Origin: Tannockella kyphosi
Lineage (GTDB): Bacteria; Bacillota_I; Bacilli_A; Erysipelotrichales; Coprobacillaceae
Assembly (NCBI RefSeq): GCF_021054785.1
Contig: NZ_CP088239.1
Coordinates: 1,620,001 to 1,652,000 of the forward strand
Reading direction: 5' to 3'
DNA length: 32,000 bases
Below, piece by piece: positions 424-32,000 of the stretch; position 1 is the stretch's first letter, and every line of letters begins with the position of its first letter. The notes beneath the pieces were generated by a model. The model was given only the letters and a program-made list of their open reading frames with translations, had not been told where the DNA came from and ran no database searches. The position numbers were made by a program, and so were the translations under genes.

Positions 424-1383
424 ATGAAACCATTTAAAAGCATAGACGAGCAAATTGAAATATTAAAAGAACGTGGATTAATTATCGATGACTATGAATT
501 CGCTAAAAAGTATCTCTTGCATAATAATTACTATAATGTTATTAATGCTCACTCACACTTTATTTACAAAAATAATAATAATAATTTTATTGATAATTTG
601 ACATTTAAAGAGATAGTAGCAATTCATTATTTTGACAAAGAAGTTAAGAGCATCCTGTTTAAACATCTACTTGATTCAGAGAAGAGATTTAAATCTATAG
701 TCGCTTATAAATTTTCCGAAAAGTACGGCTCTAATGATTATCCATATCTTAATGTTAATAATTACAATCCAAAATCTATTTTCGAAGTAACTAGTACTAT
801 TGCAAAAATTTCGCAAATTATACAAAGGAAAAAATCAAAACCCGGCAATTCCATTAGTCATTATTTCCAAATATATGATAATATTCCATTTTGGATAATT
901 ACTAACGAATTAACATTCGGTCAAACACTCCATCTATATGATCATTTTGATATATCCCTACGAAATAGTATAGCTAAGGAATTTAGCCTGATTTTAGAGG
1001 ATAACTTAGAAGTTGAAGGGGTTCGAATAACACCTGACGACCTATATACAACGTTAAATAATTTATTAGAAATAAGAAATATACTAGCCCATAATAATCT
1101 TATGTACTACTTCAAATGTAGAAAGAACATTCCTTATATAACAGAATTACATAATCTCTTCGACATGAAACATGATTCCCCTAAGAATGCTGTATATGAC
1201 GTGTTTCTTGCACTATATTGTACTTTATCCTATAACCAATATGTCGAATTGCACAATACAATTAGAAAAAGAGCGAGGACACTTAACAGAAATCTAGTAG
1301 TTATTGATGCAAATGTGGTTATGAACAGCTTAGGTTTTCCAGACGATTGGTTTAATTGCCCTGCCAAACCTACCAGAAATTAA
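424..1383 (+). CDS. Abi-like protein, AbiD/AbiF (Abi_2, PF07751) family, HEPN-type putative RNase (abortive infection)
   Basis: 319 aa. The N-terminus MKPFKSIDEQIEILKERGLIIDDYEFAKKYLLHNNYYNV is typical of the family. A HEPN R-x4-H motif (EIRNILAHNN; R218 at 1075-1077, H223 at 1090-1092) is present. No Shine-Dalgarno sequence is visible upstream. Confidence 0.85.
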   Translation: MKPFKSIDEQIEILKERGLIIDDYEFAKKYLLHNNYYNVINAHSHFIYKNNNNNFIDNLTFKEIVAIHYFDKEVKSILFKHLLDSEKRFKSIVAYKFSEKYGSNDYPYLNVNNYNPKSIFEVTSTIAKISQIIQRKKSKPGNSISHYFQIYDNIPFWIITNELTFGQTLHLYDHFDISLRNSIAKEFSLILEDNLEVEGVRITPDDLYTTLNNLLEIRNILAHNNLMYYFKCRKNIPYITELHNLFDMKHDSPKNAVYDVFLALYCTLSYNQYVELHNTIRKRARTLNRNLVVIDANVVMNSLGFPDDWFNCPAKPTRN

Positions 1384-2041: not shown

Positions 2042-2389
2042 TGGTGGAGATGAGGGGAATCGAACCCCTGTCCAAAAACAGTCCCTCCAAAACGTCTACA
2101 GTTTATCTTATTGAATAGATTTAATTAGGCTACAATCAATAAGCAATTTTACACCTAACGAGCTTATAAAATTTTCGAGATAACCATCTAAGCTCTAATT
2201 ATCCTTAACCTATGGTTATGATACCAATTATTCAGTAATAGGTATACTAAATAGTGGCACTTTCAAGTCTATGTCGACTAAGCGAAAGAATAGTTTGTTC
2301 TGTTTCCAGTTAATTTTGTTTACGTTTTAACGGCCGTCACCGACTGCAGTTAAGGTCAGACTTGCCCCTGTCGAATCCAAGACATCCCC
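2042..2389 (-). ncRNA. ssrA: tmRNA (transfer-messenger RNA)
   Basis: The minus strand reads 5' GGGGAUGUCUUGGAUUCGACAGGGGCAAGUCUGACC ... AGGGGUUCGAUUCCCCUCAUCUCCACCA 3'. The internal tag frame ends ...GGA AAC AGA ACA AAC UAU UCU UUC GCU UAG (G N R T N Y S F A *). It lies directly downstream of smpB. Confidence 0.95.
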
Positions 2390-11787: not shown

Positions 11788-12807
11788 TTAATCAATATAA
11801 TCATAACGTGCAGTAACTTGAGTTCCATCTAAAATGAAATCTCCTACATCGCTTACTCTCATTAAAGCAACCATTGAACCATTTGATCTGTTCCATACAT
11901 TATGAGCAAATTCAAATACGTTTCCATTTTGTACTGCAGTTAAATTTTGCCAAATTGGAGAAGCTTCATATGTTGCGAAATCTTCCCAACTTTCTACATT
12001 AATAAATAAATAATCTGGATCATATTCAATTAAGTTTTCTAATGCTAAATAACCACTTTCTGTCGGGAATCCTTCTGGTAAAGATAATCCTAATTGTTCA
12101 TAAACATGAGGATGAGAAGCAGCTAAACTATATTGAACACCTTTTGTTGAAATTTGTGTAACAATTGCAGTTTTTCCTTCTAAATCAATTCCAGCATCTT
12201 CAAAAGCAGCTTGATAACTAGCTACTGTTTCATCATAAGTTGCAATATTTGCAGCAGCTTCTTCTTCTTTACCTACTAATTGAGCTAAAGTTTCATGAAT
12301 TTGTTTCCAATCTTTGTTTCCATCTTCATCATAAGATAAACTAGAAGGTAAGAAATAAGTTGGAGCAATCGCATTTAATTTGTCTGAATATTCAATATTT
12401 GATTCACTAGTAATAATATAATTTAAATCTAAATCTAATAATTGTTCAAAATCAATACCATCATCTGTTGCATTAATAGGTTCAATCCCATCTAATACAC
12501 TACGATCAGGATATGTTCTTCCATAACCATCTAAATAAGAAACAATTTGTGCATCTGTTGCATCTTCTGCTGGTTCACTAGTAATAGGTGATGCTTTTGG
12601 AGCTGCATCTAAATGGATTAAATGATCTAAATAACCCCAATCTAAGATTGCATAATCACTAAATTCGCTTGGTAATGCTTGCTCTCCATCCGCCATTGTG
12701 ATAGTAGCTACTACTGTATCTTGTACTTCTTCTTCGTTGTTTGAACAACCTGTTAACATACTCACTACAAAAGTGAAAGCTAACATTAATGATGTAAATT
12801 TTTTCAT
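11788..12807 (-). CDS. Iron-siderophore/heme type ABC substrate-binding lipoprotein (Peripla_BP_2-like)
   Basis: 339 aa with a signal peptide and lipobox LTGCSN. The C-terminal motif region is YLFINVESWEDFATYEASPIWQNLTAVQNGNVFEF. It lies in an operon with FecCD permeases. Confidence 0.75.
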   Translation of the reverse strand: MKKFTSLMLAFTFVVSMLTGCSNNEEEVQDTVVATITMADGEQALPSEFSDYAILDWGYLDHLIHLDAAPKASPITSEPAEDATDAQIVSYLDGYGRTYPDRSVLDGIEPINATDDGIDFEQLLDLDLNYIITSESNIEYSDKLNAIAPTYFLPSSLSYDEDGNKDWKQIHETLAQLVGKEEEAAANIATYDETVASYQAAFEDAGIDLEGKTAIVTQISTKGVQYSLAASHPHVYEQLGLSLPEGFPTESGYLALENLIEYDPDYLFINVESWEDFATYEASPIWQNLTAVQNGNVFEFAHNVWNRSNGSMVALMRVSDVGDFILDGTQVTARYDYID

Positions 12808-12836
12808 TTTTCTCTCCTTGAAATATAGTTGATAGA

Positions 12837-13853
12837 TTATCTATCTTGTGTAAATAGTAAATATAATAAATAAGGTGCGCCTAATATAGAAATCGTGATT
12901 CCTACTGGTACATATAAAGCACCATTAATATCATTTACTAAGATTTTTGCCACGATGTCAGCAAACATAACTAAGCCAGCACCAAAGCACATTGAGATTG
13001 GTAGGAATAATTTGAAATTAGATCCTACGATTCTCTTGGCAATATGTGGGGCAATTAACCCAACAAATCCAATCGTACCTGCAACATAAACAGATACAGA
13101 TGTGAGTAGGATGGTAATACATAATAACTTATTACGTTCTTTACGTAAATCCAACCCTAATCCAATTGCCAAATCATCATCTAAGTTCAATATATTTAAA
13201 CAAAATGTACTATAGAAAACATAGATAAGACATGGAATTGCAACTGCAAATCCAATAAAGATCATTTTCCAACTAGCAAAAGTTAAATTACCAGCTTGAG
13301 AAAGTGTCAACATTAAATAAGCATCATCACTTAATTTTATTGTCAACAGTAATGAAACTGCTCCAATACAAGAATTAACTGCAATACCGTTTAAAATCAA
13401 TTTCGTTGGTGATAAATCATGTTTTAGAGCTAATCCATAGACTATCCCAAAAACAAGAAATCCACCAATCACGGCTGCAATAGGATAAGGCATTAGCATC
13501 GGTAATCCTTTATCATACATAAATACAACAAGTAAAATACCAAAGCTTGCTCCAGAAGAAACTCCAATCATATTAGGAGTAGCTAAGGGGTTACGTGTAA
13601 CTCCTTGCATAATCGCACCCGATGCTGCTAAACACATTCCTACAAAAATAGCAACTACTGTTCTAGCAATTCGAATGTCCCAAATAATAAAGTTTTCTTT
13701 TGCATCTCCAAATCCAAAGATGGTTGCAATAATACGATCAATTGATAGTGGGGTATACCCAATATTAATAGACCATATTAAGCCACAAAATAAGAAACCA
13801 ATAAAGATAGGAAGAAGTATTTTTGTACGTTGTTTATTTGTTAATTTCGCCAT
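12837..13853 (-). CDS. FecCD family iron-chelate ABC permease
   Basis: 338 aa, polytopic, with typical GxxQGVTRNPLATPNMIGVSSGASFG and C-terminal GAPYLLYLL motifs. Confidence 0.9.
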   Translation of the reverse strand: MAKLTNKQRTKILLPIFIGFLFCGLIWSINIGYTPLSIDRIIATIFGFGDAKENFIIWDIRIARTVVAIFVGMCLAASGAIMQGVTRNPLATPNMIGVSSGASFGILLVVFMYDKGLPMLMPYPIAAVIGGFLVFGIVYGLALKHDLSPTKLILNGIAVNSCIGAVSLLLTIKLSDDAYLMLTLSQAGNLTFASWKMIFIGFAVAIPCLIYVFYSTFCLNILNLDDDLAIGLGLDLRKERNKLLCITILLTSVSVYVAGTIGFVGLIAPHIAKRIVGSNFKLFLPISMCFGAGLVMFADIVAKILVNDINGALYVPVGITISILGAPYLLYLLFTQDR

Positions 13854-14881
13854 TAGAATACTCCTTTCGCTTTTTTAGAATTAATTAAATAAAGGAAGAT
13901 AGGTATTCCAATAATCGAAGTAACAATACCAACTGGTGTTTCTACTGGCATATTAATTAATCGACTAATCACATCAGCAATAATCAATAACATACTTCCA
14001 AACAATGCTGAATAAGGTACTACCTTACGGTAATCCTCTCCAACACCCATTTTTATAATATTCGGGATAATTAGACCGATAAATCCTATATTACCAACAA
14101 CACTTACACACGAAGCTGATATGAAAACAACACTAATTACTCCCAGTAATTTTGTTCTTTTTACATTTTGTCCTAAACTAATAGCTGTCTCTTCACCCAT
14201 TGATAACACAGTTAACTTCCCTGCGATACAAAAAGCAATAACAACACCCACTAATCCAACACATAAAACTCCAATACCAATCCAACGGATCCCTAACAAA
14301 CCAGAGTTATTCCATAAATAAATACCTGCTCCTTGTTCTGTATAAGACCAAAGAGTAATAGCTGTACTTATAGAAGAAAATAACGTTCCTAAAGCAGTTC
14401 CTGCTAGTAACAACTTCACGCCTGATTCTCTACCACGAATTCTAGAAGAAATAGCAAAGATAATACAAGTAGAAATAGCTGCTCCAATCATAGAAAATGT
14501 TAAATTAGTAAGATAAGTATTTGTACCTAAACTAATGGTATAAGCAATTGTTAAACCTAGGTTTGCACCACTACTTACCCCAACAACATCAGGACTTGCT
14601 AAATAATTTCTAGTAATCCCTTGCATTACTGCCCCACCTACTGCTAGTGATCCACCAACAAGAAGAGCGCCTAAAATTCTAGGGAATTTAATTGTTACAT
14701 TGACATAATGAATCATATCATTTGGATCATAATGAAGGACTGATTGAATCACTTGTTCTATTGAAGAAGCTGGTGCTAAATAGGTTAACGTAACAAATGC
14801 ACAAACAATAAACAATGTTAGAAAACTAATGACCCAAATAGTAAGGGTTGATTTTTTCACTCTTCTATTTACTTCCACCAT
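13853..14881 (-). CDS. FecCD family iron-chelate ABC permease
   Basis: 342 aa, paralogous to the neighbouring permease (MQGITRNYLASPDVVGVSSGANLG). Confidence 0.9.
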   Translation of the reverse strand: MVEVNRRVKKSTLTIWVISFLTLFIVCAFVTLTYLAPASSIEQVIQSVLHYDPNDMIHYVNVTIKFPRILGALLVGGSLAVGGAVMQGITRNYLASPDVVGVSSGANLGLTIAYTISLGTNTYLTNLTFSMIGAAISTCIIFAISSRIRGRESGVKLLLAGTALGTLFSSISTAITLWSYTEQGAGIYLWNNSGLLGIRWIGIGVLCVGLVGVVIAFCIAGKLTVLSMGEETAISLGQNVKRTKLLGVISVVFISASCVSVVGNIGFIGLIIPNIIKMGVGEDYRKVVPYSALFGSMLLIIADVISRLINMPVETPVGIVTSIIGIPIFLYLINSKKAKGVF

Positions 14882-15674
14882 GAACCTCCCTATCCATTAG
14901 TTCATAAGAAATACAAACTGGGATTTCACTATCTGGTAAATTAATAATATTTGCTTCTATCTTAAATACTTCTCTAAGATTTTCTTTATTCATAATTTCT
15001 TTAGGAGAACCTTGTCTAATTACTTCTCCTTTTTTCAACATAATTAATTCATCAGAAAATCTACTTGCTTGATTAATATCATGAAGTACCATAATAACAG
15101 TAATCCCTTTATCTTTATTTAAAGATTGTACTAATTGTAATACTTCTAATTGATAAGCCATATCTAAATAAGTGGTTGGTTCATCTAATAAAATAACATC
15201 TGTTTGTTGAGCTAAAACCATAGCTACCCATACACGTTGTCTTTGACCACCAGATAAAGCATTAATATTACGGTCTTTAAACTCTAACAAATCTGTTTGT
15301 TCTAAAGCCCAATTAATAATGTCATGATCTTCTTGATTAAAACGTTCACGTTTCTTTTTGTGTGGAAAACGTCCATATTCAACAATTTCTCCAACACTTA
15401 AACCACTAGGTGCTTTAGGAGATTGTGGTAACATACCAATGATTTTTGCTATTTGTTTGGTATTTGTTTTATGAATATTCAAATCTTCTACAAATACTTC
15501 TCCATGTTTTGGTCTTAAAATACGACCAATTGTTTTTAATAAAGTAGACTTCCCACAACCATTTTCTCCAATAATGGTAGTTATTTGTCCTTTTTTAATA
15601 GAAAGTGATAAATCATCAATGATAATATTTTTCTCATATCCTACTTTCACTTCATTCATTGTAATAATGTTCAT
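14865..15674 (-). CDS. Iron-chelate ABC transporter ATP-binding protein (FepC/FhuC-like)
   Basis: 269 aa with Walker A GENGCGKST, signature LSGGQRQR and Walker B ILLDEPTTYLD. It overlaps the permease start by 17 nt. Confidence 0.9.
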   Translation of the reverse strand: MNIITMNEVKVGYEKNIIIDDLSLSIKKGQITTIIGENGCGKSTLLKTIGRILRPKHGEVFVEDLNIHKTNTKQIAKIIGMLPQSPKAPSGLSVGEIVEYGRFPHKKKRERFNQEDHDIINWALEQTDLLEFKDRNINALSGGQRQRVWVAMVLAQQTDVILLDEPTTYLDMAYQLEVLQLVQSLNKDKGITVIMVLHDINQASRFSDELIMLKKGEVIRQGSPKEIMNKENLREVFKIEANIINLPDSEIPVCISYELMDREVHGGSK

Positions 15675-15685
15675 TTAGTTCCCCT

Positions 15686-16474
15686 TTATTTGCTTTTTTT
15701 AAATGTTAATGCTACTAAACCAGTATTCTCTTTAAAATAAGCATTGTTGGTAGCAACTAATTTTTGGAAAATTTCTTCTTTTTTATCATCAACTATTTCA
15801 ATAACAGTTTCAAAATGATTATCTTTTCCATCATAGATCATACAAGTATTTCCTGCTTTAATATGTTCCATCTTAAATGAATCACTTTTAGCAAGACAAT
15901 AATAAGTATCTCCTTCTACCAAAACACTAAAAATAACATTACGATCTAAGTATGTCATTAATACTTGACGACTGTTTTCAAAACGTTCTCTACCATTTGG
16001 TGCAAAGCGAGCAAATGTTGGTTGTAAATCATTTTTGATGTTATATACTTCACTGTGACTTAATGAAATAGTTGCTTCCAGAAAATTAAGTTGGAAGAAC
16101 TTAGCACGGTGTGATTTCATTTTTGATATCATGTGGTTAGTTTTGGCTAACTCGTTGATAAAATTTTCATCTCCTGTTAAACGATTGCACTCTATTTGTC
16201 CGTAAAACTTTTTAGCACCTTTTCCAAAACCTTCTTGAATAAATCCAGAAAATACTGATTTATCTTCTAAATAGTTAGCAAGTTTTGACATTGGTGGAAC
16301 TATTGCAATATGTTGATCCATAAAATAAAAATAATCAATACTATCAATAACAGCAAAACCATCTTGCCCTAAAACTGCTACATTCATTATTCTTTGTTGT
16401 TCTAAAAACTCAACAATAGCACTTCTAGCTTCATGAATGGGTAATCTATTTTTAAACTGTTCATGTTGTTTCAT
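15686..16474 (-). CDS. Pyridoxamine-5'-phosphate-oxidase-like split-barrel protein; possible HugZ/HutZ-like heme-degrading or iron-release enzyme
   Basis: 262 aa, first gene of the iron ABC operon. Two halves have a PNPOx-like pattern (…RIMNVAVLGQDGFAVIDSIDYFY… and …VLMTYLDRNVIFSVLVEGDTYYCLAKSDSFKMEHIKAGNTCMIY…). The family call was made by eye and is tentative. Confidence 0.35.
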   Translation of the reverse strand: MKQHEQFKNRLPIHEARSAIVEFLEQQRIMNVAVLGQDGFAVIDSIDYFYFMDQHIAIVPPMSKLANYLEDKSVFSGFIQEGFGKGAKKFYGQIECNRLTGDENFINELAKTNHMISKMKSHRAKFFQLNFLEATISLSHSEVYNIKNDLQPTFARFAPNGRERFENSRQVLMTYLDRNVIFSVLVEGDTYYCLAKSDSFKMEHIKAGNTCMIYDGKDNHFETVIEIVDDKKEEIFQKLVATNNAYFKENTGLVALTFKKSK

Positions 16475-22203: not shown

Positions 22204-22220
22204 CTAAAATCCTTATAATT

Positions 22221-22258
22221 AAAAAAGTATCTAGTTATTAAAGTCTAGATACTTTTTA
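22221..22258. terminator. Bidirectional terminator between the convergent AKR gene and the FecR-repeat gene
   Basis: AAAAAGTATCTAG / CTAGATACTTTTT 13 bp stem with a 10 nt loop. A-tract and T-tract flanks serve both strands. Confidence 0.7.
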
Positions 22259-22274
22259 TATGTTTAAATCTAAA

Positions 22275-25200
22275 TTACCAAAGATGCCAACTCCACGTTG
22301 TCTCCAACGTAATAAGCCATCTTCCATCTTCTTGTAATACTGCTCCTTCGACAAGTTCACTAATTAGTACTTTATCACCTCTTGAATAGGTTATTCCAGT
22401 TGCAGGATTATACCATTTTGATAATACATATCCATTCGAATACCAACTGCTATTTAGTTCAACTTCTAGTGTATCGGAATAAGTATAATTACCAGCAGTA
22501 TCGATAATTGTTCCATCATCATCATCAACATAGTTAATATAATATGTATTAGCTTGCCACTTAGCATAAACATTTAAAGATACTCCTGATTCTTTTTTCC
22601 AAGTACTTAACTCTTCTTCATCAGTACAGTCCTCGTCAAAATACCAACCAACAAATGTATAGCCTGTTTTTGTAGGTGTTGTTAATTTATCAGCGACCAC
22701 TTCTCCAGTTTCCACATATACAATATCTAATACATCAGAACCATCATACATATATACTGGAGATGCAGAAGCTACATAGTAAGCATATAACGTAACATCC
22801 TCGTTACCCATTACTGTACCTATTTTATGTTGATCCCCACTAGCATCATACCAGCCAACAAAAACATAAGTATTCTCTGGATCACCTGTTGTGTCAATAT
22901 AGTTAGATAATACTGGCAATAACTCATACGTTTCACCTGCTAAATATTTGTAATCATATTCTGCCGTATCTGCATATTCCGATACAAACGTAATCGTATA
23001 CAGTCTCGACCATATTGCTGTTACTGTCAAATCAGATGCTGGCATTGTTGTATAAACTGTGCCATCATCATCTTTCCATCCACCAAATACATATTCAATG
23101 GTAGTAGTAATATCGTTCGTCGTATTTGTCGTCGTACTATTTTCTATACCTGTGGTAATTGATTCAGGAAAAGATTCTCCTTCAATTAGATAAATAGTAC
23201 CACTTTGCTTCTCTGTAAAATAGTATGTTAATGCGTACGTTTGTTCCCACTTACCATATAATTCAACTCCCTTTGCTGGCATTGTATCATCTACTAATAA
23301 AGAATTCGCATACTCTGCATCATAATACCAACCTACAAATTTGTAATTAGTTTTTTCTATTTCATTAGCAATACTATCATCAGCCAAGATAGCTGTTACT
23401 ACACTTTCTCCATATGTTACAGATAACGTATCAATTACCTTATTATCAGTGTCATATAGAGTAACTTCATACTCATTTATTGTGAATGTTGCTGTTAGTG
23501 TTAGATCTTTAGCAGGCATTGTATCACCTGTTTGCCACTTATCTTTATCCTCATCACACCAACCATTAAATTCATAACCTTCTTTTGCATCACTTAAATC
23601 CGAAAGACTAAGTTCTGTTCCATAAACAACTGTAGTTTCTGTTGTTTTTGTTCCGTTATCATCTTGTTCAACCAAAGCCAACCTATATGAATTTGTAGTC
23701 CAAACAATATAAACTGTAATTCCACCTTCTGGTACTGTCACTTCGCTAAGGTCATCGATTGTTGTTTTCGTCTCACCTACGTAGTAATAGTAACTTTGGA
23801 ATGTCACATATGTTTTTTCATATAATGTTGCTACTGTACCTACATAATCACTTATTGTTGTTCCATAAGTCATATTCGTACTTGATGTATTTTCATCTTT
23901 TGTTCCATCAAGAACATTGACGACAGTAACTTCATACTCATTTATTGTGAATTTTGCTGTTAAGGTTAAATCACTTGCAGGCATTGTATCACCTGTTTGC
24001 CACTTATCTTTATCCTCATCACACCAACCATTAAATGTATAACCTTCTTTTGCATCACTTAAATCCGAAAGACTAAGTTCTGTTCCATAAACAACTTTAC
24101 TTTCTGTTTTTTCCTCATTTTGATCAACTAAAGTTAATGTATATGATTTTGTAGTCCAAACAATACAAACTGTGATTCCACCTTCTGGTACTGTCACTTT
24201 GCTAATATCATCGATTGTTGTTTTCGTCTCACCTACGTAGTAATAGTAACTTTGGAATGTCACATATGTTTTTTCATATAATGTTGCTACTGTACCTACA
24301 TAATCACTTATTGTTGTTCCATAAGTCATATTCGTACTTGATGTATTTTCATCTTTTGTTCCATCAAGAACATTGACGACAGTAACTTCATACTCATTTA
24401 TTGTGAATGTTGCTGTTAAGGTTAAATCACTTGCAGGCATTGTATCACCTGTTTCCCATTCAACATCTCCGCTGTACCAACCATTAAATTCATAACCTTC
24501 TTTTGCATCACTTAAATCCGAAAGACTAAGTTCTGTTCCATAAACAACTTTACTTTCTGTTTTTTCCTCATCTTGATCAACTAAAATTAATGTATATGAA
24601 TTTGTAGTCCAAACAATATAAACTGTAATTCCATCTACCGGTACTGTCACTTCGCTAAGGTCATCGATTGTTGTTTTCGTCTCACCTACGTAGTAATAGT
24701 AACTTTGGAATGTCACATATGTTTTTTCATATAATGTTGCTACCGTACCTACATAATCACTTATTAACGATCCATAAGTCATATCCTTACTTGATGTATT
24801 TTCATCTTCTTTTCCATCAAGAACATTGACAACAGTAACTTCATACTCATTTATTGTGAATGTTGCTGTTAGTGTTAGATCTTTAGCAGGCATTGTTGTA
24901 TATTGATTATCATTTGAATCACACCAACCATTAAATGTGTAACCTTCTTTTTCTAACACTTCTAATTCTAACGTTTCATTATATGCTACTTTTGTTATTT
25001 CTTCACTCTCACCATTAATCAGTGTTAATGTAAACTCTACACGTTTCCAATTTACAAAAATTACAATTCCACCTTCTGGCATCGTTAGATCTTTTATATC
25101 TATTGCTTCTGTACAATCAACATCTGTATAATAGCCTTCTATATAATACCAATTAGCATAAGCATAACTATTTCCATGTGAATCTGCATAAGATTCAATT

Positions 25201-26834
25201 GTTGTTGTTAATGAAGATGCATAATCAAAATTACCAACGCTGTTAAATGCATTTGATCCAAAATTACTTATAACATTTAATTGATAACTATTAATTGTCC
25301 ATGATGATGTTAATGATAGGTTAGATGCAGGCATTGTATCACCTGTTTCCCATTTAACATCTCCACTGTACCAACCATTAAATGTATAACCTTCTTTTGT
25401 AAGACTAGGTAATGTTAATGTTGTACCATAATCTACATCTTGTGTTTCACCATCTAATGACAATACATAACTATTAATTGTCCATGATGATGTTAATGTT
25501 ACATTAGATGATGGCATTGTTGTATATTGATTATCATTTGAATCATACCACCCATTGAATGTATAACCTTCTTTTGCAAGAGTAGGTAATGTTAATGTTG
25601 TACCATAGTCTACATCTTGTGTTTCACCATCTAATGACAATACATAACTATTAATTGTATATGATGATGTTAATGATAAGTTAGACGCAGGCATTGTATC
25701 ACCTGTTTTCCATTGCGTATCGTTACTATACCAACCATCAAAAGTATAACCTTCTTTTGTAGGAGTAGGTAATTCTAACGTATCTTGATAGTTTAAAGAT
25801 AGTGAAGATGTTGTTTCTTCATCTTTTAGGTTTACAGTATAATTGATTTTTTCAAATTTAGCATAAACTACAATATCTTCACTAGGCATTGTGTTTAACT
25901 CAATGCTTGTTTGATATTCATTATCACTATACCAACCTTCAAAAGTATATCCTGTAGCTGTTGGAGTAGTAATTGATAATTCTTCATTTTCGTTATAAAC
26001 ATAACTAGTTTGTTGTTCAAATACAACCGTTGTTAAATCATAACTTACTACTAAACGATTTTCTTGTTCTTGTTCAACTTCTTCCACTGCAAAGATAGTT
26101 TCTTTTTCACCTGTTGAAGTTTGTTTTTGTAAAAGTGATAACATACTATCAGAAATAGCGTCTAGCTCTATTTCCCATAACTCTTCTTCTCCAATAGGAG
26201 TTAGTACATATTCAACATAGACAGCTTCTTCACTTTCTACTTTAACTGAATATCCAGCTTCAACAAATACTTCTTGTTCTAAAGTACCATCATCCTTCTT
26301 TAAATAAGAAGCAACAGTCCCTTCAAAAGTCAATAAATCCGTATAATATAATCCATCTTCCATATAAACATCTATACCAAATACTGTTCCACGAACAGAC
26401 ATACTAGCATTAGGTGTCGTAACTTCATAAGTAGATTCATCAGAAAGTGCTGCTGTTAATTCATTAACAATTGATCCTGTTTCAACAATGATCTCTGTTT
26501 GTGAATTTTCTTCATCTCCTGATGCAACAATAGATAAAACAGTGTTTGCTTCAATATAAATATATTTATCTTCATCTAACACTAAACGTACATAAGAATC
26601 TTGATCAACTGTAATTTTGTCCCCGCTTACTAGTTGCATTCCATCATAGATACTTATCTCTCCAATATCTTCTCTATCAATTGTTGCTGTCCCGTCATAT
26701 TCTAGCACTTTTATAGTACGATAACTTTCCTGTGAATCATTGTTAGTTGATGTAGAATTACTAAAGAAGTAAACTCCTACACCAGCACCTATTACAATAA
26801 GTATCGTTAGTAATGCTAGAAATTGCTTTTTCAT
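22275..26834 (-). CDS. Giant membrane-anchored surface protein: signal-anchor + FecR-like domain + about 17 Listeria-Bacteroides (Flg_new, GYTFxGWY) repeats
   Basis: 1519 aa. The N-terminal TM segment is LALLTILIVIGAGVGVYFF. A FecR-type module spans about aa 38-200 (…GDKITVDQDSYVRLVLDEDKYIYIEANTVL…YEVTTPNASMSVRGTVFGI). About 13 canonical GY(T/E)FxGW repeats and about 4 variant repeats follow. There is no LPXTG or C-terminal anchor. Confidence 0.85.
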   Translation of the reverse strand: MKKQFLALLTILIVIGAGVGVYFFSNSTSTNNDSQESYRTIKVLEYDGTATIDREDIGEISIYDGMQLVSGDKITVDQDSYVRLVLDEDKYIYIEANTVLSIVASGDEENSQTEIIVETGSIVNELTAALSDESTYEVTTPNASMSVRGTVFGIDVYMEDGLYYTDLLTFEGTVASYLKKDDGTLEQEVFVEAGYSVKVESEEAVYVEYVLTPIGEEELWEIELDAISDSMLSLLQKQTSTGEKETIFAVEEVEQEQENRLVVSYDLTTVVFEQQTSYVYNENEELSITTPTATGYTFEGWYSDNEYQTSIELNTMPSEDIVVYAKFEKINYTVNLKDEETTSSLSLNYQDTLELPTPTKEGYTFDGWYSNDTQWKTGDTMPASNLSLTSSYTINSYVLSLDGETQDVDYGTTLTLPTLAKEGYTFNGWYDSNDNQYTTMPSSNVTLTSSWTINSYVLSLDGETQDVDYGTTLTLPSLTKEGYTFNGWYSGDVKWETGDTMPASNLSLTSSWTINSYQLNVISNFGSNAFNSVGNFDYASSLTTTIESYADSHGNSYAYANWYYIEGYYTDVDCTEAIDIKDLTMPEGGIVIFVNWKRVEFTLTLINGESEEITKVAYNETLELEVLEKEGYTFNGWCDSNDNQYTTMPAKDLTLTATFTINEYEVTVVNVLDGKEDENTSSKDMTYGSLISDYVGTVATLYEKTYVTFQSYYYYVGETKTTIDDLSEVTVPVDGITVYIVWTTNSYTLILVDQDEEKTESKVVYGTELSLSDLSDAKEGYEFNGWYSGDVEWETGDTMPASDLTLTATFTINEYEVTVVNVLDGTKDENTSSTNMTYGTTISDYVGTVATLYEKTYVTFQSYYYYVGETKTTIDDISKVTVPEGGITVCIVWTTKSYTLTLVDQNEEKTESKVVYGTELSLSDLSDAKEGYTFNGWCDEDKDKWQTGDTMPASDLTLTAKFTINEYEVTVVNVLDGTKDENTSSTNMTYGTTISDYVGTVATLYEKTYVTFQSYYYYVGETKTTIDDLSEVTVPEGGITVYIVWTTNSYRLALVEQDDNGTKTTETTVVYGTELSLSDLSDAKEGYEFNGWCDEDKDKWQTGDTMPAKDLTLTATFTINEYEVTLYDTDNKVIDTLSVTYGESVVTAILADDSIANEIEKTNYKFVGWYYDAEYANSLLVDDTMPAKGVELYGKWEQTYALTYYFTEKQSGTIYLIEGESFPESITTGIENSTTTNTTNDITTTIEYVFGGWKDDDGTVYTTMPASDLTVTAIWSRLYTITFVSEYADTAEYDYKYLAGETYELLPVLSNYIDTTGDPENTYVFVGWYDASGDQHKIGTVMGNEDVTLYAYYVASASPVYMYDGSDVLDIVYVETGEVVADKLTTPTKTGYTFVGWYFDEDCTDEEELSTWKKESGVSLNVYAKWQANTYYINYVDDDDGTIIDTAGNYTYSDTLEVELNSSWYSNGYVLSKWYNPATGITYSRGDKVLISELVEGAVLQEDGRWLITLETTWSWHLW
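23461..24950 (-). repeat. In-frame tandem DNA repeats (3 units of 453, 456 and 465 bp plus partial flanks) inside the giant gene
   Basis: The marker GTAACTTCATACTCATTTATTGTGAAT recurs at 23461, 23926, 24382 and 24835. Units 2 and 3 share an identical stretch of more than 200 bp (…ATCGATTGTTGTTTTCGTCTCACCTACGTAGTAATAGTAACTTTGGAATGTCACATATG…). Each unit encodes TFTINEYEVTVVNVLDG…YYYYVGETKTTIDD…KVVYGTELSLSDLSDAKEGYxFNGW. Confidence 0.9.
25288..25700 (-). repeat. Three highly similar consecutive Flg_new repeat units (periods 183 and 177 bp)
   Basis: CTATTAATTGT(C/A)(C/T)ATGATGATGTTAATG recurs at 25288, 25471 and 25648. GTTTCACCATCTAATGACAATACATAACTATTAATTGT recurs at 25444 and 25621. The units encode SYVLSLDGETQDVDYGTTLTLPxLxKEGYTFNGWY. 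Confidence 0.85.
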
Positions 26835-26905
26835 AATTCATCCCTTCTTCCCGTGTTTTAAGATTTTTCTACTGCTTTATAATTAATAAAACTTAATAAA
26901 TATTT

Positions 26906-28771
26906 TTATTCAGAAACATTGACCCATTTGATATAGATACCAAATGTACTACTGTCAGGTACTGTTAATGTTGATATATCTAACTTACTAGATTCTTCAT
27001 ACGTACTCGTTGAATAATAACCTTCTACTACCATATCATATTCTGTATCTTGATCTGGATTTTTATCTAAATAGCTATAAAATGATGCCAAATGTGATTG
27101 TGCAGCACTCTCTACGTCACTCTCTAAACTAGTTCCATAGTTTTTGATATCCGGACTTGACATACCAAAAAATCCTGTCATATTGGAAATAATCACAACA
27201 TTGCAAGTGTGGATTTCCCAGCTTGCAGTCAATGTTAAATTGGATGCAGGCATGGTTGTATATTCATTTCCATTTGCATCATACCAACCGTTAAATGTAT
27301 ATCCTGTTTTTGTTAAAGTCTCTAGTTCTAATGTTTCTCCATAATTTACTTTCGATGTTGTTTGGGTATCATCTACTAAAGTTAATGTATAACTATTGAT
27401 TGTCATCTTAGCAGTTAATGATAAATCATTGTTTGGCATTTTATCTCCACTTACCCACTTTGTACCACTGCTATCATACCAACCATTAAATGTATATCCT
27501 GTTTTTGTAAGTGTTGTTAAGGATATCGATTCTTGGTAAGAATAGGTTGTTTGTGTTGTATTTGATCCATCATTTGTTGTTAGTGTGTATTTGCCAACTT
27601 CATTTTCCTTCCAAGATGCATATAAAGTAATGTCTTTCATTGGCATTGTGTCACCACTTTGCCACTTTGTACCACTGCTATCATACCACCCTGAAAATGT
27701 ATACCCTGTTTTAGTTGGACTAGACAATTCTATTGTATCACTTTGAGCCAAGGATACAACATCTTTTATTCCCTCGTTATCAAGAGTTAATGTGTATTTT
27801 GTCTTGTCATACTTAGCATAAAGTGTAATATCACTAGCTGGCATAGAGGTCGAAGTATAGGCCGTTTCATAGCTATCTTCTAGGTACCAACCTATAAATG
27901 TATAACCTGTTACTTCTTCTATATCAATCTCCATTATTTGATTTTCAGTTAACGTATATTCCGTTTCTTCATCAAATATAACTGTTGTTAGTATATATTC
28001 TTCTGGTTCTTCTCTTCTTTGTAATTCCGAAGTTAGTGATTCACTAGAAATGATAATTTCATTTGTACCTACTGCTAAGTATTCTGTTAGTAAATCTAAC
28101 ATATCTTGACTCATTGTAGTAAGATCAATTTCCCACAATTCACTTTCATTGTTTGATTCAACAACATATTTTACATATTCTTCTTGAATACTTTCTATTT
28201 TTACTACATAACCAGCATCTACTGATAATTCTTGTAGATAATTATCTTGTTCATCTACTAAATAACTAGTTACTGTTCCTTCTAAAGTTGTCATATTGGT
28301 ATAATACAATTCTCCTACTTTATAAACTTCTACAGCAAATGTAGTTCCTCTAACAGATAAACTAGCATTTGGTGTTGTTACTTCATAAGACTCTTCTTCT
28401 TGTAAATCTACCATTATTTCATTAATAATTGTTCCTTCTAATAATACTAATTCCATACTATCTTGTGCTGGTTCTAATTGTAGGGTTGTATTTGGTGATA
28501 CATAAATATATTTATCTTCATCTACTAACAACCTAACATAACCATCACTACCAACTGTTAATACATCTCCACTTTCTAATAACATACCTGCATATAATTC
28601 GAGATCATCAATTTCTCCACGTTGGAGTAAAGCATCACCAGTTATTTCTGTTACTTCTATTCTTTGAACAACTTCTTGTTCTTCATTAGAAATAGATGCA
28701 ATAAGCACTATTGCTATGATAAAGAGTATAGAAACAACACCTATAATTACATATTTTCTATTTTTCATCAT
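26906..28771 (-). CDS. Membrane-anchored FecR-domain protein with about 5 Listeria-Bacteroides repeats
   Basis: 621 aa. The TM anchor is YVIIGVVSILFIIAIVLIASI. The FecR module reads (…GDVLTVGSDGYVRLLVDEDKYIYVSPNTTL…YEVTTPNASLSVRGTTFAV). Repeats: GYTFIGWY, GYTFSGWY and two GYTFNGWY. Confidence 0.85.
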   Translation of the reverse strand: MMKNRKYVIIGVVSILFIIAIVLIASISNEEQEVVQRIEVTEITGDALLQRGEIDDLELYAGMLLESGDVLTVGSDGYVRLLVDEDKYIYVSPNTTLQLEPAQDSMELVLLEGTIINEIMVDLQEEESYEVTTPNASLSVRGTTFAVEVYKVGELYYTNMTTLEGTVTSYLVDEQDNYLQELSVDAGYVVKIESIQEEYVKYVVESNNESELWEIDLTTMSQDMLDLLTEYLAVGTNEIIISSESLTSELQRREEPEEYILTTVIFDEETEYTLTENQIMEIDIEEVTGYTFIGWYLEDSYETAYTSTSMPASDITLYAKYDKTKYTLTLDNEGIKDVVSLAQSDTIELSSPTKTGYTFSGWYDSSGTKWQSGDTMPMKDITLYASWKENEVGKYTLTTNDGSNTTQTTYSYQESISLTTLTKTGYTFNGWYDSSGTKWVSGDKMPNNDLSLTAKMTINSYTLTLVDDTQTTSKVNYGETLELETLTKTGYTFNGWYDANGNEYTTMPASNLTLTASWEIHTCNVVIISNMTGFFGMSSPDIKNYGTSLESDVESAAQSHLASFYSYLDKNPDQDTEYDMVVEGYYSTSTYEESSKLDISTLTVPDSSTFGIYIKWVNVSE

Positions 28772-28773
28772 AA

Positions 28774-29925
28774 CTATTCACTAGTTTTAGCATAAATTGT
28801 ATAAAAATCAATTGCAGGCATAGAAGCTTCTTCTAAGAACAATGAAAACTCTCCTAAAGAAACATCAGCATAGAATTCTTCTACACTTATTCCACTACGA
28901 TAATCTAATAATTCACTAAAAAGTGTTCCTTCAGCTACTGCTACTTGTAATTTAACACCATCTTGGTAAACAATATTAAGCATATATCCATCCCATGCTT
29001 TTTCTAATAAAGCATAAACAGATGAATCTTGTTCTGGCATTGTTGTTAAAGAATATTCTTCTTCACAATTCCATGTTGTATACCAACCTAAAATATTATA
29101 ATTTTCAAAAGTAATACTATCAAAATCTATTTCTTCTCCTGCTCTAAAGTAATAATATCTTACTTCTACATCGGTTGAAACAAACAATAAATAATAATCA
29201 CCTTTATCTAAGTTTCTACTTTGTGCTTCTAATTCTATTTCATAACTAGTAAAACACATTCCTTGTGCTCCACTCATTGTTGCTTGATAAATGAAAGCAA
29301 ACATTTCTTCATTTATATCTTCTATCACTAACTCAGATTTAGTAACTGTATCACTGGTAATTTCTAAACTATATCCTTGACCAACATAAGTTTCTTCTGT
29401 TACACCATTGATCGTATAACTAGCTAATACATATCCTTCTAAAGCATATAACGTAGAACATGTTTCTCCTTGTTCTTCTACTACTTCAACACCATAAATA
29501 GTACCTCTAACACCAAAACTAGCATTAGGAGTAGTTACTTCATAACTAGAATCATCACTTAAATCTTCTTGTATTTCACTAATAATAGTTCCTGATGATA
29601 ATACTATTTCTGTATTTGAATCTGTTTCATCTCCACTACTATTTAAACAAAAAGATGAATTTTCTTTCACATAAATATATTTATCACCATCAATTAATAC
29701 ACGTAAATAAGAATCACTAGATACACTCACTTCATCTCCTGATTCTAGAAGCATACCTTCATACGCTTCTAAATCATCGATATCATCTCTTTGTACAAGG
29801 ACATCTCCTGATACTTCTATTACTTCCATTGTATAAACAAATTCTTCTGTTTCTTCATTTGATGAACAAGCTACTAAAAATAGAACTACTACAAGCATTG
29901 TTGTTAGTTTTATTATTTTTTTCAT
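28774..29925 (-). CDS. FecR-domain lipoprotein with one degenerate Listeria-Bacteroides-type repeat
   Basis: 383 aa with lipobox LVACSS. The FecR module reads (…GDEVSVSSDSYLRVLIDGDKYIYVKENSSF…YEVTTPNASFGVRGTIYGV). One repeat, NYNILGWY. AGGGGAG RBS lies 9 nt upstream of the ATG. Confidence 0.8.
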   Translation of the reverse strand: MKKIIKLTTMLVVVLFLVACSSNEETEEFVYTMEVIEVSGDVLVQRDDIDDLEAYEGMLLESGDEVSVSSDSYLRVLIDGDKYIYVKENSSFCLNSSGDETDSNTEIVLSSGTIISEIQEDLSDDSSYEVTTPNASFGVRGTIYGVEVVEEQGETCSTLYALEGYVLASYTINGVTEETYVGQGYSLEITSDTVTKSELVIEDINEEMFAFIYQATMSGAQGMCFTSYEIELEAQSRNLDKGDYYLLFVSTDVEVRYYYFRAGEEIDFDSITFENYNILGWYTTWNCEEEYSLTTMPEQDSSVYALLEKAWDGYMLNIVYQDGVKLQVAVAEGTLFSELLDYRSGISVEEFYADVSLGEFSLFLEEASMPAIDFYTIYAKTSE

Positions 29926-29930
29926 AAAAA

Positions 29931-31712
29931 TTACTCCCCTAAAGAAACTACTTCATAAAGTAATGTTTCTTCTTGTTTCCCTTTTAATTTTTTATATCCT
30001 AAAGCATTAAAAATAACTCTATTTCCTAGGGCATCTACTACTTCTTGACTTACTAGTATTTGATTTGCTTGCGCATTTGATTCTAAACGAGATGCAGTAT
30101 TTACCGTATCACCAATAGCCGTATAGTCTAAATGCCTAACACTACCAATATTACCAACGACTGCTTCTCCTATATGTACACCGACACCTACCATAAAGGG
30201 ATGTCCGTATTTTTCTAACGTATATTTATTACTTTCTTTACATGCTTCTCTTAGTTCTACTGCACATTTCACTGCACGATAGATATAATCATCTACATCA
30301 AATGGTGAATTAAAGACAGCCATTGCTGCATCACCCATAAACTTATCTACTGTACCTAAGTTATCAAAGATAACATTGGTAATAATATTGAAATGACCAT
30401 TTAATATGTCTACTACTTCTTCTGGTGATAATCTTTCAGATAGTGTAGTAAATCCTCGAACATCAATAAATAATACAGCTATATGTTTTGTTTGACTATT
30501 TACTTGTTCTAAGTCTTCTTTGTTTGCAATTACTTTTTTTACTACTTGTGGAGATACATAAGTTTCAAACATTTGAATCGTTTCTCTTTGTTTTTTTCTT
30601 ACCACAAAGTAACTAAATACTGTATAAAGTACCCATACTAAAAAGCTAATTACTGGTAGTACTAATAATGGAATACTTAATCCATTATTATATAAAGTCT
30701 TACAAGCTATAAAATAAATAATATTAATAACAACAGTAGTCATTGCTCCCTTAAGAACAGTGAAACTCATTACTAAATAACTAGAAACAAATATGAAAAC
30801 AAACAAAATCAAACTATGTAACCAACTATCTATTGTTAATACTGTACTTCCATTTAAAATAGATTCAGCAATATTAATATGAATCTCTACTCCATACATC
30901 TGCGTATCCATTTCTATTGCAACATTATAAGCATCTTGCATCCCTGATGCATGTGCTCCAACTAATACATAACAATCTTTAAAACTACGAACATCTACTG
31001 TTCCATCTAATACATCAATTAAAGATACTTCTTCATAGGTACAACTCTTAGCAACATAAGAAAAACCAAATACATTACTACTAGACATATTTATTTCTGG
31101 AATTTCTACTCCTGTATTTTCAGCAATTTGATTAGCTAAAATAGCTGCAAAACTATAATAAGTACTATCTTCATAATCAATACTATATAAAGATCTACGA
31201 ACTACAGAATCATCATCAATAATAGCGTTAGAAAATCCTTGTAATGTTACTTCTTGTAATGCACTAAAAGGTTCTTCAATAAATTCTACAGACATATTAT
31301 CTACATTAATAACTGCTTCTTCTACTTCTGTTATCGTATCTTCAAAAGATATTAAATTAACTACAGCAACATTACCAAAATCCTTAGCAGCATCTACAAA
31401 CGCTTGATCTCCATCTTCAGAAATAGTTCCTGAAAACAAAATATCGAAACCAATAAAATAAGGTGCATATTCTGTATCTAATATTTCAATTAACTGAGCA
31501 TATACACTACGATCCCAAGTACCAAAGGTACCTAGTGTATCTAATGTTTTTTGATCAATTTTAATTACTTTTATATTTGTATTAATAGCACTTTCTTCTT
31601 GATATACAGCATCTTGAACTTTTTGATCAAAATAGTAAAAAACATTACTATAAGAACAAAAACTTCCAATCAAAGCTATAAAAACACAAACAATTAGTTT
31701 TTGTATTCTCAT
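29931..31712 (-). CDS. CHASE2 sensor domain-containing class III adenylate/guanylate cyclase (predicted adenylate cyclase)
   Basis: 593 aa. Architecture: TM1, an ectodomain of about 260 aa (CHASE2-like), three TM segments (aa ~298-370), then a cyclase domain VLFIDVRGFTTLSE…VDKFMGDAAMAVF…VGVGVHIGEAVVGNIGS…DYTAIGDTVNTASRLES with both metal-binding Asp residues, Asn and Arg present. Confidence 0.88.
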   Translation of the reverse strand: MRIQKLIVCVFIALIGSFCSYSNVFYYFDQKVQDAVYQEESAINTNIKVIKIDQKTLDTLGTFGTWDRSVYAQLIEILDTEYAPYFIGFDILFSGTISEDGDQAFVDAAKDFGNVAVVNLISFEDTITEVEEAVINVDNMSVEFIEEPFSALQEVTLQGFSNAIIDDDSVVRRSLYSIDYEDSTYYSFAAILANQIAENTGVEIPEINMSSSNVFGFSYVAKSCTYEEVSLIDVLDGTVDVRSFKDCYVLVGAHASGMQDAYNVAIEMDTQMYGVEIHINIAESILNGSTVLTIDSWLHSLILFVFIFVSSYLVMSFTVLKGAMTTVVINIIYFIACKTLYNNGLSIPLLVLPVISFLVWVLYTVFSYFVVRKKQRETIQMFETYVSPQVVKKVIANKEDLEQVNSQTKHIAVLFIDVRGFTTLSERLSPEEVVDILNGHFNIITNVIFDNLGTVDKFMGDAAMAVFNSPFDVDDYIYRAVKCAVELREACKESNKYTLEKYGHPFMVGVGVHIGEAVVGNIGSVRHLDYTAIGDTVNTASRLESNAQANQILVSQEVVDALGNRVIFNALGYKKLKGKQEETLLYEVVSLGE

Positions 31713-31714
31713 TT

Positions 31715-32000
31715 CTATAATTTGTCACAAATTAATTCAACAATATCTCTACAAATAGAAATATCTTTTTCTGTGAAATCACCTTCAGTTTTGTTTAATA
31801 ATTGCACACAACCATAAACTTCTTCTTGAACAATAATAGGTAAACAAATAATATTTTTACTAACAAATCCAGTAGCACTATCTGCTTTTTGATACCATCT
31901 AGGATCATTCACTAAATCATTGCTTATAATTTCTATATTTTCTGCAACACATTTACCACATAACCCTTGTCCTATTGGTAATTCTAAATCTCTTAGACCA
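31715..32000 (-). CDS. GAF domain protein, C-terminal part (gene continues beyond the right edge of the window)
   Basis: The frame stays open upstream of the GTG listed in the ORF track. Manual translation from the window edge: GLRDLELPIGQGLCGKCVAENIEIISNDLVNDPRWYQKADSATGFVSKNIICLPIIVQEEVYGCVQLLNK…, a typical GAF core. The stop lies 2 nt before the cyclase ATG. Confidence 0.7.
   Translation of the reverse strand, partial: GLRDLELPIGQGLCGKCVAENIEIISNDLVNDPRWYQKADSATGFVSKNIICLPIIVQEEVYGCVQLLNKTEGDFTEKDISICRDIVELICDKL

Follow-up and report, generated by a model that had tools for sequence, protein, structure and literature searches.

Positions 22275-32000 of the window analysed here (the whole stretch of 32,000 nt, positions 1,620,001 to 1,652,000 of contig NZ_CP088239.1, Tannockella kyphosi) hold five co-directional minus-strand genes, numbered 1 to 5 from the end of the window inward. 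Gene 1 encodes a GAF protein, gene 2 a receptor adenylate cyclase with a CHASE2 ectodomain, and genes 3-5 three surface proteins in which a FecR module is followed by Flg_new repeats. The locus belongs to a known, uncharacterised pairing of CHASE2 receptors with FecR partner proteins, and the FecR modules are very probably coupled in function to the CHASE2 receptors. An input or modulator role for the partners, which would make the locus a Gram-positive version of a widespread two-part extracytoplasmic sensor, is given a probability of about 0.5. The Gram-positive setting is new, as are the Flg_new arrays of three graded lengths, the stand-alone GAF protein of apparently cyclic-nucleotide type, and the conserved neighbours of the cluster (a DUF3307 protein and a giant protein).

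CHASE2 is among the commonest extracytoplasmic sensor domains of bacteria and is found on cyclases, kinases, diguanylate cyclases and phosphodiesterases. To our knowledge, no ligand has been established for it since the domain was defined in 2003. A proposed dedicated partner with a conserved, membrane-adjacent FecR module provides a testable lead on what this orphan domain detects.

CHASE2-FecR pairing across bacteria

Relatives of the gene 2 cyclase were collected from Bacillota and many other phyla (one genome per species), giving 80 CHASE2-cyclase loci, and FecR-module open reading frames (ORFs) were found in them with a hidden Markov model (HMM) grown from the three window modules. An ORF of this kind lay within 10 kb of the cyclase at 45/80 loci, or at 33/46 when only loci with at least 5 kb on both flanks were counted. 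FecR-module ORFs were on the cyclase strand in 50 of 52 cases (96% concordance) and within 300 nt of the cyclase at 22 loci, and their density fell about 40-fold, from 0.47/kb in the first 300 nt to 0.012/kb at 5-10 kb. All 37 modules sampled matched Pfam FecR. FecR was the commonest Pfam family among immediate upstream neighbours (11/70) and the second among immediate downstream neighbours (11/70), after AP_endonuc_2 (13). When the inspection was made from the other side, FecR relatives lay within two genes of a CHASE2 gene on 6 of 7 contigs. In the window, gene 3 is 5 nt from the cyclase gene and co-directional with it, and the pairing is kept in close relatives, both in near-identical metagenomic contigs and in Faecalibacillus. 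The tendency of CHASE2 and FecR genes to be neighbours in several phyla, which the earlier note had mentioned, is thus borne out, and the adjacency is conserved among relatives.

The partner was also found beside CHASE2 receptors with other outputs. A Variovorax plasmid carries a response regulator, a LysM-FecR protein and then a CHASE2 histidine kinase, and on a metagenomic contig the stop of a CHASE2-HD_5 (HD-GYP) gene overlaps the start of a FecR gene by 4 nt; the FecR module at this second locus is 41% identical to that of gene 3. The FecR partner tracks the CHASE2 sensor and not the output domain, be it cyclase, histidine kinase or HD-GYP. This is the strongest argument that FecR works with the CHASE2 ectodomain and not with cyclic AMP (cAMP) as such.

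Two loci (loci and contigs are numbered with the prefix L) are recorded separately. On a Sphingobium plasmid (L096, 1735-9478), the CHASE2 cyclase is preceded by a 1,028-aa CHAT (caspase-like) protein, not by FecR, and after it come genes for a ShlB/FhaC two-partner-secretion transporter and for a very large protein, a different partner set. At L100 (4220-5988), on a metagenomic contig, gene calling yields CHASE2 (433 aa) and the cyclase domain (154 aa) as two separate neighbouring genes, with a FecR gene next; the split could be a frameshift, an assembly error or genuine.

The CHASE2 adenylate cyclase

Gene 2 matched CHASE2 at 133.2 bits (PF05226, gathering cut-off 26.3) and Guanylate_cyc at 104.5 bits in Pfam. 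The catalytic residues D417, D461, K457, T531, N538 and R542 were invariant or nearly so in alignments of 14 and of 50 sequences, so the class IIIb set is all present (two metal Asp, Lys and Thr, transition-state Asn and Arg). The Lys/Thr pair of class IIIb indicates ATP specificity. Judged by its sequence, the gene 2 product is a bona fide CHASE2 class IIIb cyclase. The AlphaFold2 (AF2) model of the cyclase had a mean predicted local distance difference test score (pLDDT) of 88.5 and showed helices at residues 2-22, 296-316, 319-342 and 351-385, followed by the cyclase domain; the predicted topology is an alpha/beta ectodomain between an N-terminal transmembrane (TM) helix and a three-TM cluster. 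The order TM, CHASE2, three TM and class III cyclase with an intact catalytic set, as read earlier from the sequence, is upheld by Pfam, the AF2 model and the conserved residues. Matches in the PDB exist for the catalytic domain, Foldseek with the full-length model returned catalytic-domain matches only, and no solved CHASE2 structure was found in the PDB by sequence profile.

The FecR modules and their distal repeats

Genes 3, 4 and 5 scored 36, 30 and 32.9 bits against Pfam PF04773 (cut-off 24). In the AF2 model of gene 3, pLDDT was about 90 for the module (residues 31-200) and poor beyond it, and the top Foldseek matches of this module were the anti-sigma factor BDI_1681 (4M0N) and the PupR CCSSD (6OVK), both at probability 1.00. 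The FecR domains of genes 3-5 are bona fide. The module starts about 10-20 residues past the lipobox or anchor, and 6-8 residues precede the hydrophobic segment; the start of each protein is as it had been described, an LVAC lipobox in gene 3 and hydrophobic N-terminal anchors in genes 4 and 5. No match was obtained in a sequence search of the PDB with gene 3, and the module profile gave weak partial matches only (5IX9, MtxA and OmpU, of which OmpU is probably spurious).

The first, beta-rich part of the module (gene 3 residues 34-103; 29617-29826) weakly resembles the anchoring or retention module of RTX/LapA-type giant adhesins. Gene 3 aligned with 5IX9 at a Foldseek template-modelling score of 0.70 (local, 62 residues), and the match to the LapA-type retention module (NF033682) was below the family cut-off (22.6 bits, cut-off 50).

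A single-sequence search with gene 3 returned 9 relatives only. A profile of the three window modules was then searched against 1.84 billion proteins (E ≤ 0.001, counted as cluster representatives) and retrieved 5,306 cluster representatives, in all 150 best of which the module lies at about residues 30-250, right after the leader. Of the 100 closest representatives, 12 had Flg_new in the C-terminal part and most had nothing there that could be recognised. FecR-TPR proteins of ~347 aa form a large family and dominate the profile matches, and in Betaproteobacteria the variable part is LysM. A docking module joined to a variable sensing or anchoring part would be expected to look like this, with a conserved N-terminal module and a changing C-terminal part.

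The Flg_new units of genes 4 and 5 are tandem ~70-aa repeats (PF09479 / TIGR02543), with Pfam PF09479 scores of 137 and 264 bits, respectively. Repeats were counted with a home-made HMM built on those of genes 4 and 5. Gene 3 has a single degenerate repeat (independent E-value 3e-7, and no call from Pfam), gene 4 four strong repeats with a degenerate tail, and gene 5 12 strong repeats and 4-5 weak ones, close to the counts of 1, about 5 and about 17 proposed from the sequence. The earlier note knew of no FecR fused to long Flg_new arrays and triplicated behind a cyclase in a Gram-positive; FecR with Flg_new is uncommon, yet its occurrence in the 12 representatives above means that it is not unique. 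No C-terminal wall-sorting signal was recognisable in the translations of genes 3-5.

The Gly-Thr motif

Escherichia coli FecR was aligned to the module HMM, and its Gly181-Thr182 fell exactly on a Gly-Thr of the module that is present in all three window proteins (Table 1). This dipeptide, part of an RGT motif, shows little or no variation in two alignments of 65 and 37 modules, and 143/147 closest representatives have it; it went unmentioned in the earlier note. FecR self-cleaves at G181-T182, and dissociation of the fragment drives signalling (PMC12036975). The motif is not universal among FecR-type regulators (PMC7186176), for which reason its retention in genes 3-5 is notable. The products of genes 3-5 are putatively self-cleaved at Gly-Thr, and the partner family as a whole appears to keep the FecR self-cleavage dipeptide, a recognition that is new as far as our literature search showed.

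The GAF protein and cyclic-nucleotide readers

The gene 1 fragment in the window matched GAF_2 at 45.9 bits in Pfam. In near-identical metagenomic contigs (L001-L003), the gene is whole and encodes a 132-aa GAF-only protein. Gene 1 therefore does not end in a GAF domain, as the earlier note had it, and is not the tail of a larger protein. The best PDB matches of the 132-aa protein were Anabaena CyaB2 (3.5e-14), 5W10 (7e-14) and GAF-B of PDE2A/PDE10A. We take 5W10 to be the GAF domain of Leptospira interrogans Lcd1. The GAF signature reads NK-x4-F-x3-D-I, with the final Glu of NKFDE missing, and a 'TGF.[ST]' stretch can be read in the sequence. The protein appears to be of the cyclic-nucleotide-binding type and may bind cAMP, as do the GAF domains of CyaB2 (1YKD), Lcd1 and PDE2A/PDE10A (GAF-B) that match it best. 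Those GAF domains are fused to an enzyme, whereas the window GAF stands alone, so any output must run through another protein. The Lcd1 GAF domain is reported to be activated by cAMP (PMC8846402).

A free methionine-sulfoxide reductase of the YebR type was considered for the GAF protein and rejected, with a match of only 1.3e-4 against 1e-14 for cyclic-nucleotide-binding GAF domains. The conserved catalytic motif of the YebR type was not visible in the GAF sequence.

At other Bacillota CHASE2-cyclase/FecR loci, the neighbouring readers were GAF-HD-GYP, MBL-GAF-GGDEF, cNMP_binding-DUF2225 and cNMP_binding-SpoIIE proteins or a small cNMP-binding protein; the cNMP_binding-SpoIIE reader is followed once by RsbW-like and STAS genes. 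A PilZ protein and a class II phosphodiesterase are encoded nearby at the Trichlorobacter locus. A cyclic-nucleotide reader next to the CHASE2/FecR pair is the rule, and a lone GAF without an attached output is unusual; the earlier idea of the GAF protein as a cNMP-binding output or feedback element was thus a reasonable one. At L099 (1924-8722), the order is FecR, cNMP_binding-SpoIIE, CHASE2 cyclase, AP_endonuc_2, HATPase_c_2, STAS and GGDEF, which suggests cAMP feeding a partner-switching cascade.

Upstream genes and conservation of the cluster

The cluster runs on upstream of the window, with the same direction and close spacing. In L001 the order is giant protein, DUF3307, GAF and cyclase, with gaps of 14, 16 and 2 nt; the earlier note mentioned neither the giant surface protein nor DUF3307. 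In the near-identical contigs the head of the cluster encodes a giant protein of ~3,577 aa with a C-terminal TM anchor (L001, 1-8864). Giant proteins of ~3,500-3,700 aa with GG[LIVA][IVAL]G motifs (also L004, 1-7771; L091; L093) are homologous across Tannockella, its relatives and Faecalibacillus, at 32-65% identity over >2,400 aa. Pfam and NCBIfam gave no match in a 2,901-aa stretch of the giant protein. The multi-TM DUF3307 protein (L001, 8879-9583) is encoded between the giant gene and the GAF gene and is a candidate partner of the GAF protein. DUF3307 genes also adjoin CHASE2 cyclases at Elusimicrobia and Fervidobacterium loci (L047, L063, L033), and a literature search for DUF3307 returned one unrelated phage paper only.

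Relatives with cyclases 72% and 52% identical to that of the window retain the order giant protein, DUF3307, GAF, cyclase and next gene, the last of these being truncated where their contigs stop. In Faecalibacillus (cyclase 42% identical), these genes also cluster, slightly rearranged, and the only FecR-Flg_new protein encoded after them has 1,659 aa; the giant protein there shares 32% identity with its counterpart over 2,471 residues, and a 136-aa Faecalibacillus ORF had no Pfam or NCBIfam match.

Relation to known systems

The neighbourhood is already in print (PMC5192318, PMC9239204, PMC5498481, PMC4439547), with no mechanism given. The earlier note had mentioned the adjacency and known of no described mechanism; the latter stands, and the neighbourhood itself has been published in these four papers.

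CHASE2 histidine kinase/FecR pairing has been described across Burkholderiales and in Pseudomonas aeruginosa (PMC5192318). In Burkholderia 'BiofilmReg' and PA4035/PA4036-type pairs, as in the window, the gene of an anchored or secreted FecR protein lies beside the CHASE2 receptor gene and is co-directional with it (PMC5192318). In both, FecR is fused to a further module, which in the BiofilmReg type is the envelope-binding LysM; this layout was confirmed on the Variovorax plasmid. The BiofilmReg type has a histidine kinase and response regulator, LysM and one partner gene in a Gram-negative cell, whereas the window has a cAMP output, Flg_new arrays and three paralogues in a cell without an outer membrane.

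Clusters of Campylobacterota contain a cyclase, a phosphodiesterase, an outer-membrane FecR protein together with a TPR protein (PMC9239204), and in magnetospirilla mtxA is followed by a CHASE2 cyclase gene (PMC4439547; PDB 4Z29). The N-terminal region of MtxA matched the module profile weakly (E = 0.006). In Campylobacterota, Desulfuromonadota and magnetospirilla, a FecR gene abuts the CHASE2 cyclase gene and genes for cyclic-nucleotide turnover or readers are near, as in the window; the arrangement was seen in Trichlorobacter. The partners in these groups differ in having TPR or Big C-terminal domains and in being periplasmic or outer-membrane associated.

In Sinorhizobium meliloti, smc02177 and smc02178 presumably lie at the cyaD1/clr locus. 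SMc02177 has a FecR domain and is encoded beside smc02178, and the smc02177 mutant shows hyper-infection, the same as cyclase and Clr mutants (PMC5498481). The CyaD1/CyaD2/CyaK-Clr system resembles the window in that CHASE2 cyclases and an extracytoplasmic FecR protein serve the same biological function (PMC5498481; PMC13001267). It differs in that cAMP is read by the Crp-like Clr and in having neither repeat arrays nor a GAF protein.

FecA-FecR-FecI and the window share a beta-solenoid-like FecR fold and Gly-Thr at the self-cleavage position (PMC12036975, PMC7186176); in each, the FecR domain lies close to the membrane and is succeeded by a distal part that binds a partner in FecR and may do so in the window. 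Unlike that system, the window proteins are without a cytoplasmic anti-sigma domain, an extracytoplasmic-function (ECF) sigma factor gene, a TonB-dependent transducer or an outer membrane, and any signal would have to pass sideways to CHASE2 and not via regulated proteolysis to a sigma factor. Among ORFs of at least 90 aa in the 32-kb window, neither a sigma-factor domain nor a TonB-dependent receptor domain was found. A FecIRA-type anti-sigma module was rejected as a description of the locus, given that the cytoplasmic domain, the ECF sigma gene and the TonB-dependent transducer are all missing.

The Leptospira lipoproteins LipL45 and Lsa33 (NF033165, NF047849), described as adhesins or antigens, have an N-terminal FecR-type module that aligns with genes 3-5 over ~150-170 residues. 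Genes 3-5 are not orthologues of either, because their scores are far below the cut-offs (47 against 420 bits).

Interpretation

In the input model that we infer, the CHASE2 ectodomain would team up with the membrane-proximal FecR modules, placed right after the lipid or TM anchor of the three paralogues, and the Flg_new arrays (1, about 5 and about 17 repeats) would reach outward from them as antennae or as tethers across the wall. A change of state of the partner, through ligand or wall contact or through dissociation of a fragment after Gly-Thr self-cleavage, would be passed laterally to CHASE2 and through the three-TM bundle to the class IIIb catalytic domain, which would make cAMP. The cAMP would be read in the cytoplasm by the co-encoded 132-aa GAF protein, and in relatives this role would fall to GAF-HD-GYP, MBL-GAF-GGDEF or cNMP_binding-SpoIIE proteins. 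The model is favoured because the partner follows CHASE2 across outputs and because the conserved part of the partner is membrane-proximal and the distal part exchangeable.

Several observations weigh against the input model. FecR genes are missing within 10 kb at about 30-45% of CHASE2-cyclase loci, which means that CHASE2 can function with no partner next to it, and one of the seven FecR relatives inspected lay far from any CHASE2 gene. CHASE2-FecR fusions were looked for as 'Rosetta stone' evidence, which was dropped since none was seen in the 80 loci or the 100 closest representatives. A mirror-tree comparison gave r = 0.79, with a partial r of 0.45 for CHASE2 and 0.34 for the catalytic domain; the correlation is barely stronger for CHASE2 and so speaks for co-inheritance only, leaving input and output undistinguished. 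Deletion of mtxA gave no phenotype (PMC4439547). In the one genetic test of signal perception that was found, in S. meliloti, plant-signal reporter induction by CHASE2 cyclases was unchanged in the smc02177 mutant, and smc02177 was a Clr/cAMP target needed for the downstream phenotype (PMC5498481). For that signal at least, this is real evidence that the FecR protein is not a simple co-receptor. The proposal in the earlier note that the FecR proteins are co-receptors or gatekeepers is accordingly supported in part only: the neighbours are conserved, and the S. meliloti FecR protein was dispensable for signal perception.

It is possible, if rather doubtful, that the FecR-Flg_new proteins are outputs or cargo, that is, surface adhesins or wall-associated proteins co-expressed with the cAMP pathway or controlled by it. 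CHASE2 would then sense in another way (e.g., a small molecule, or the state of the membrane or wall), and the giant protein might be cargo too. The S. meliloti result fits this, SMc02177 being a Clr/cAMP target required for the phenotype and not for perception. In NCBIfam, the named relatives closest to the module are the Leptospira adhesin Lsa33 and the lipoprotein LipL45. Flg_new repeats are a usual element of internalin-like surface proteins, the cluster also encodes a conserved tail-anchored surface protein of ~3,500 aa, and the first part of the module has the weak likeness to adhesin retention or anchoring modules described above. An output role leaves unexplained, however, why FecR accompanies CHASE2 cyclases, histidine kinases and HD-GYP proteins alike (PMC5192318) and why a conserved membrane-proximal module is combined with a freely exchanged distal part; moreover, co-transcription with a sensor is not regulation by that sensor.

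Less probable still are FecR proteins acting as negative regulators or chaperone-like stabilisers, by which CHASE2 would be held inactive or shielded from proteolysis until their removal, much as the C-terminal fragment of FecR protects the N-terminal fragment from cleavage. The FecR cleavage cascade does consist of protection and dissociation (PMC12036975), TonB-dependent transducers are reported to shield anti-sigma factors from proteolysis (PMC11637429), the Gly-Thr motif is conserved, and multiple paralogues stand beside one cyclase at several loci. Against such a role, the smc02177 mutant resembles a cyclase-null and not a constitutively active strain, with reporter induction unchanged (PMC5498481), and no protease gene is conserved nearby (an M48 peptidase was encoded in 3/70 downstream neighbours). 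Mere inheritance of gene order with no functional link is very improbable: the 80 loci are phylogenetically non-independent and some neighbours, such as AP_endonuc_2 in Lachnospiraceae, do recur by apparent lineage inertia, but examples of the pairing come from Bacillota, Desulfuromonadota, Campylobacterota, Alpha- and Betaproteobacteria, Chloroflexota, Thermotogota, Saccharibacteria and other groups, the order of the genes (upstream or downstream) and the fusion partners vary, strand concordance is 96% and starts often overlap.

A narrower form of the input model, which we regard as unlikely, is that CHASE2 reads the state of a self-cleaved protein partner and not a small molecule, responding to a stub that is exposed once the distal fragment is dislodged. 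After a self-made Gly-Thr nick like that of FecR and FoxR, the Flg_new arrays would be held non-covalently on a membrane-anchored stub beside CHASE2 until pulling, ligand binding or wall remodelling dislodged the fragment, an arrangement that may be likened to Notch and to the GAIN domains of adhesion G-protein-coupled receptors. With 1, about 5 and about 17 repeats, the three arrays would sample the Gram-positive wall and surface at differing depths, and CHASE2 kinases, cyclases and phosphodiesterases across bacteria would use their LysM and TPR partners in the same way.

If the input model is right, CHASE2 signals should be sought among envelope or surface proteins instead of small molecules, FecR-type relay would reach beyond iron signalling in Gram-negative bacteria to the control of second messengers in Gram-positive ones of the gut, and cAMP signalling in Coprobacillaceae would be tied to very large surface proteins. 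If the FecR-Flg_new proteins are instead outputs, the locus still shows, in compact form, surface-protein genes associated with cAMP in a gut lineage that has been little studied.

Locus layout and surroundings

The gaps between the five genes are 2, 5, 2 and 71 nt. Gene number, direction and gaps were the same in the ORF calls as in the earlier note, the operon-like arrangement proposed there holds on strand, spacing and terminator, and every domain it had called (GAF, CHASE2, cyclase, FecR and Flg_new) was recovered in the Pfam search. The intrinsic terminator placed 3' of the last gene was confirmed, with a stem at 22222-22257; its hairpin fold had a z score of -3.0 and was more stable than 200/200 shuffles (0/200 as stable). 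The pattern scanner overlooked it because the loop is 10 nt, and gave two weak intragenic terminator matches, no more than shuffled sequence yields. An A-run on the other side makes the terminator usable by the convergent aldo-keto reductase gene too. The AT-rich 71-nt gap between genes 4 and 5 may contain an internal promoter. An NCBI protein of Tannockella kyphosi (Coprobacillaceae, Erysipelotrichales) has exactly the sequence of the gene 3 product (100% identity).

Table 1. Features of the cluster, in window coordinates.
Feature	Position	Strand	Detail or basis
GAF protein (gene 1), 3' 95 codons; 5' end beyond window	31715-32000	minus	Pfam GAF_2/GAF
Receptor adenylate cyclase (gene 2), 593 aa	29931-31712	minus	TM1, CHASE2 ectodomain, three TM helices, class IIIb catalytic domain; Pfam, alignments, AF2
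CHASE2 ectodomain, residues 17-308	30789-31664	minus	Pfam PF05226, 1.6e-38
Class III cyclase catalytic domain, residues 406-583	29964-30497	minus	Pfam PF00211, invariant columns
Gene 3, 383-aa lipoprotein (LVAC lipobox)	28774-29925	minus	FecR module residues 31-200 (29326-29835)
Gly141-Thr142, gene 3	29500-29505	minus	Positional equivalent of FecR G181-T182
Degenerate Flg_new-like repeat, gene 3 (n=1)	28978-29220	minus	Home-made repeat HMM
Gene 4, 621-aa signal-anchored protein	26906-28771	minus	FecR module 28022-28687
Gly142-Thr143, gene 4	28343-28348	minus	Same Gly-Thr motif
Flg_new repeats, gene 4 (4 + degenerate tail)	27194-28021	minus	Home-made repeat HMM
Gene 5, 1519-aa signal-anchored protein	22275-26834	minus	FecR module 26067-26741
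Gly149-Thr150, gene 5	26385-26390	minus	Same Gly-Thr motif
Flg_new / Flg_new_2 repeats, gene 5 (about 16-17)	22350-26066	minus	Home-made repeat HMM
Intrinsic terminator	22217-22257	minus	13-bp stem (22222-22257), 10-nt loop, T-run

The remaining window is ordinary chromosome, with genes for transfer-messenger RNA (tmRNA), SmpB, RNase R, SecG, MreB, an M23 peptidase, SpoIID, the convergent aldo-keto reductase and transporters, including an iron-siderophore-type ATP-binding cassette (ABC) system. A 262-aa ORF at 15686-16474 (minus strand) with no Pfam match adjoins the iron-siderophore-type ABC transporter cluster (11788-15674). The tmRNA gene (2042-2389, minus strand; Rfam 143 bits, no match with ARAGORN) lies just downstream of smpB (2431-2886). 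An Abi_2 (abortive-infection-like) gene (424-1383, plus strand) borders the tmRNA gene on its 3' side; the G+C there is lower (0.28), and this may be a small island inserted at ssrA.

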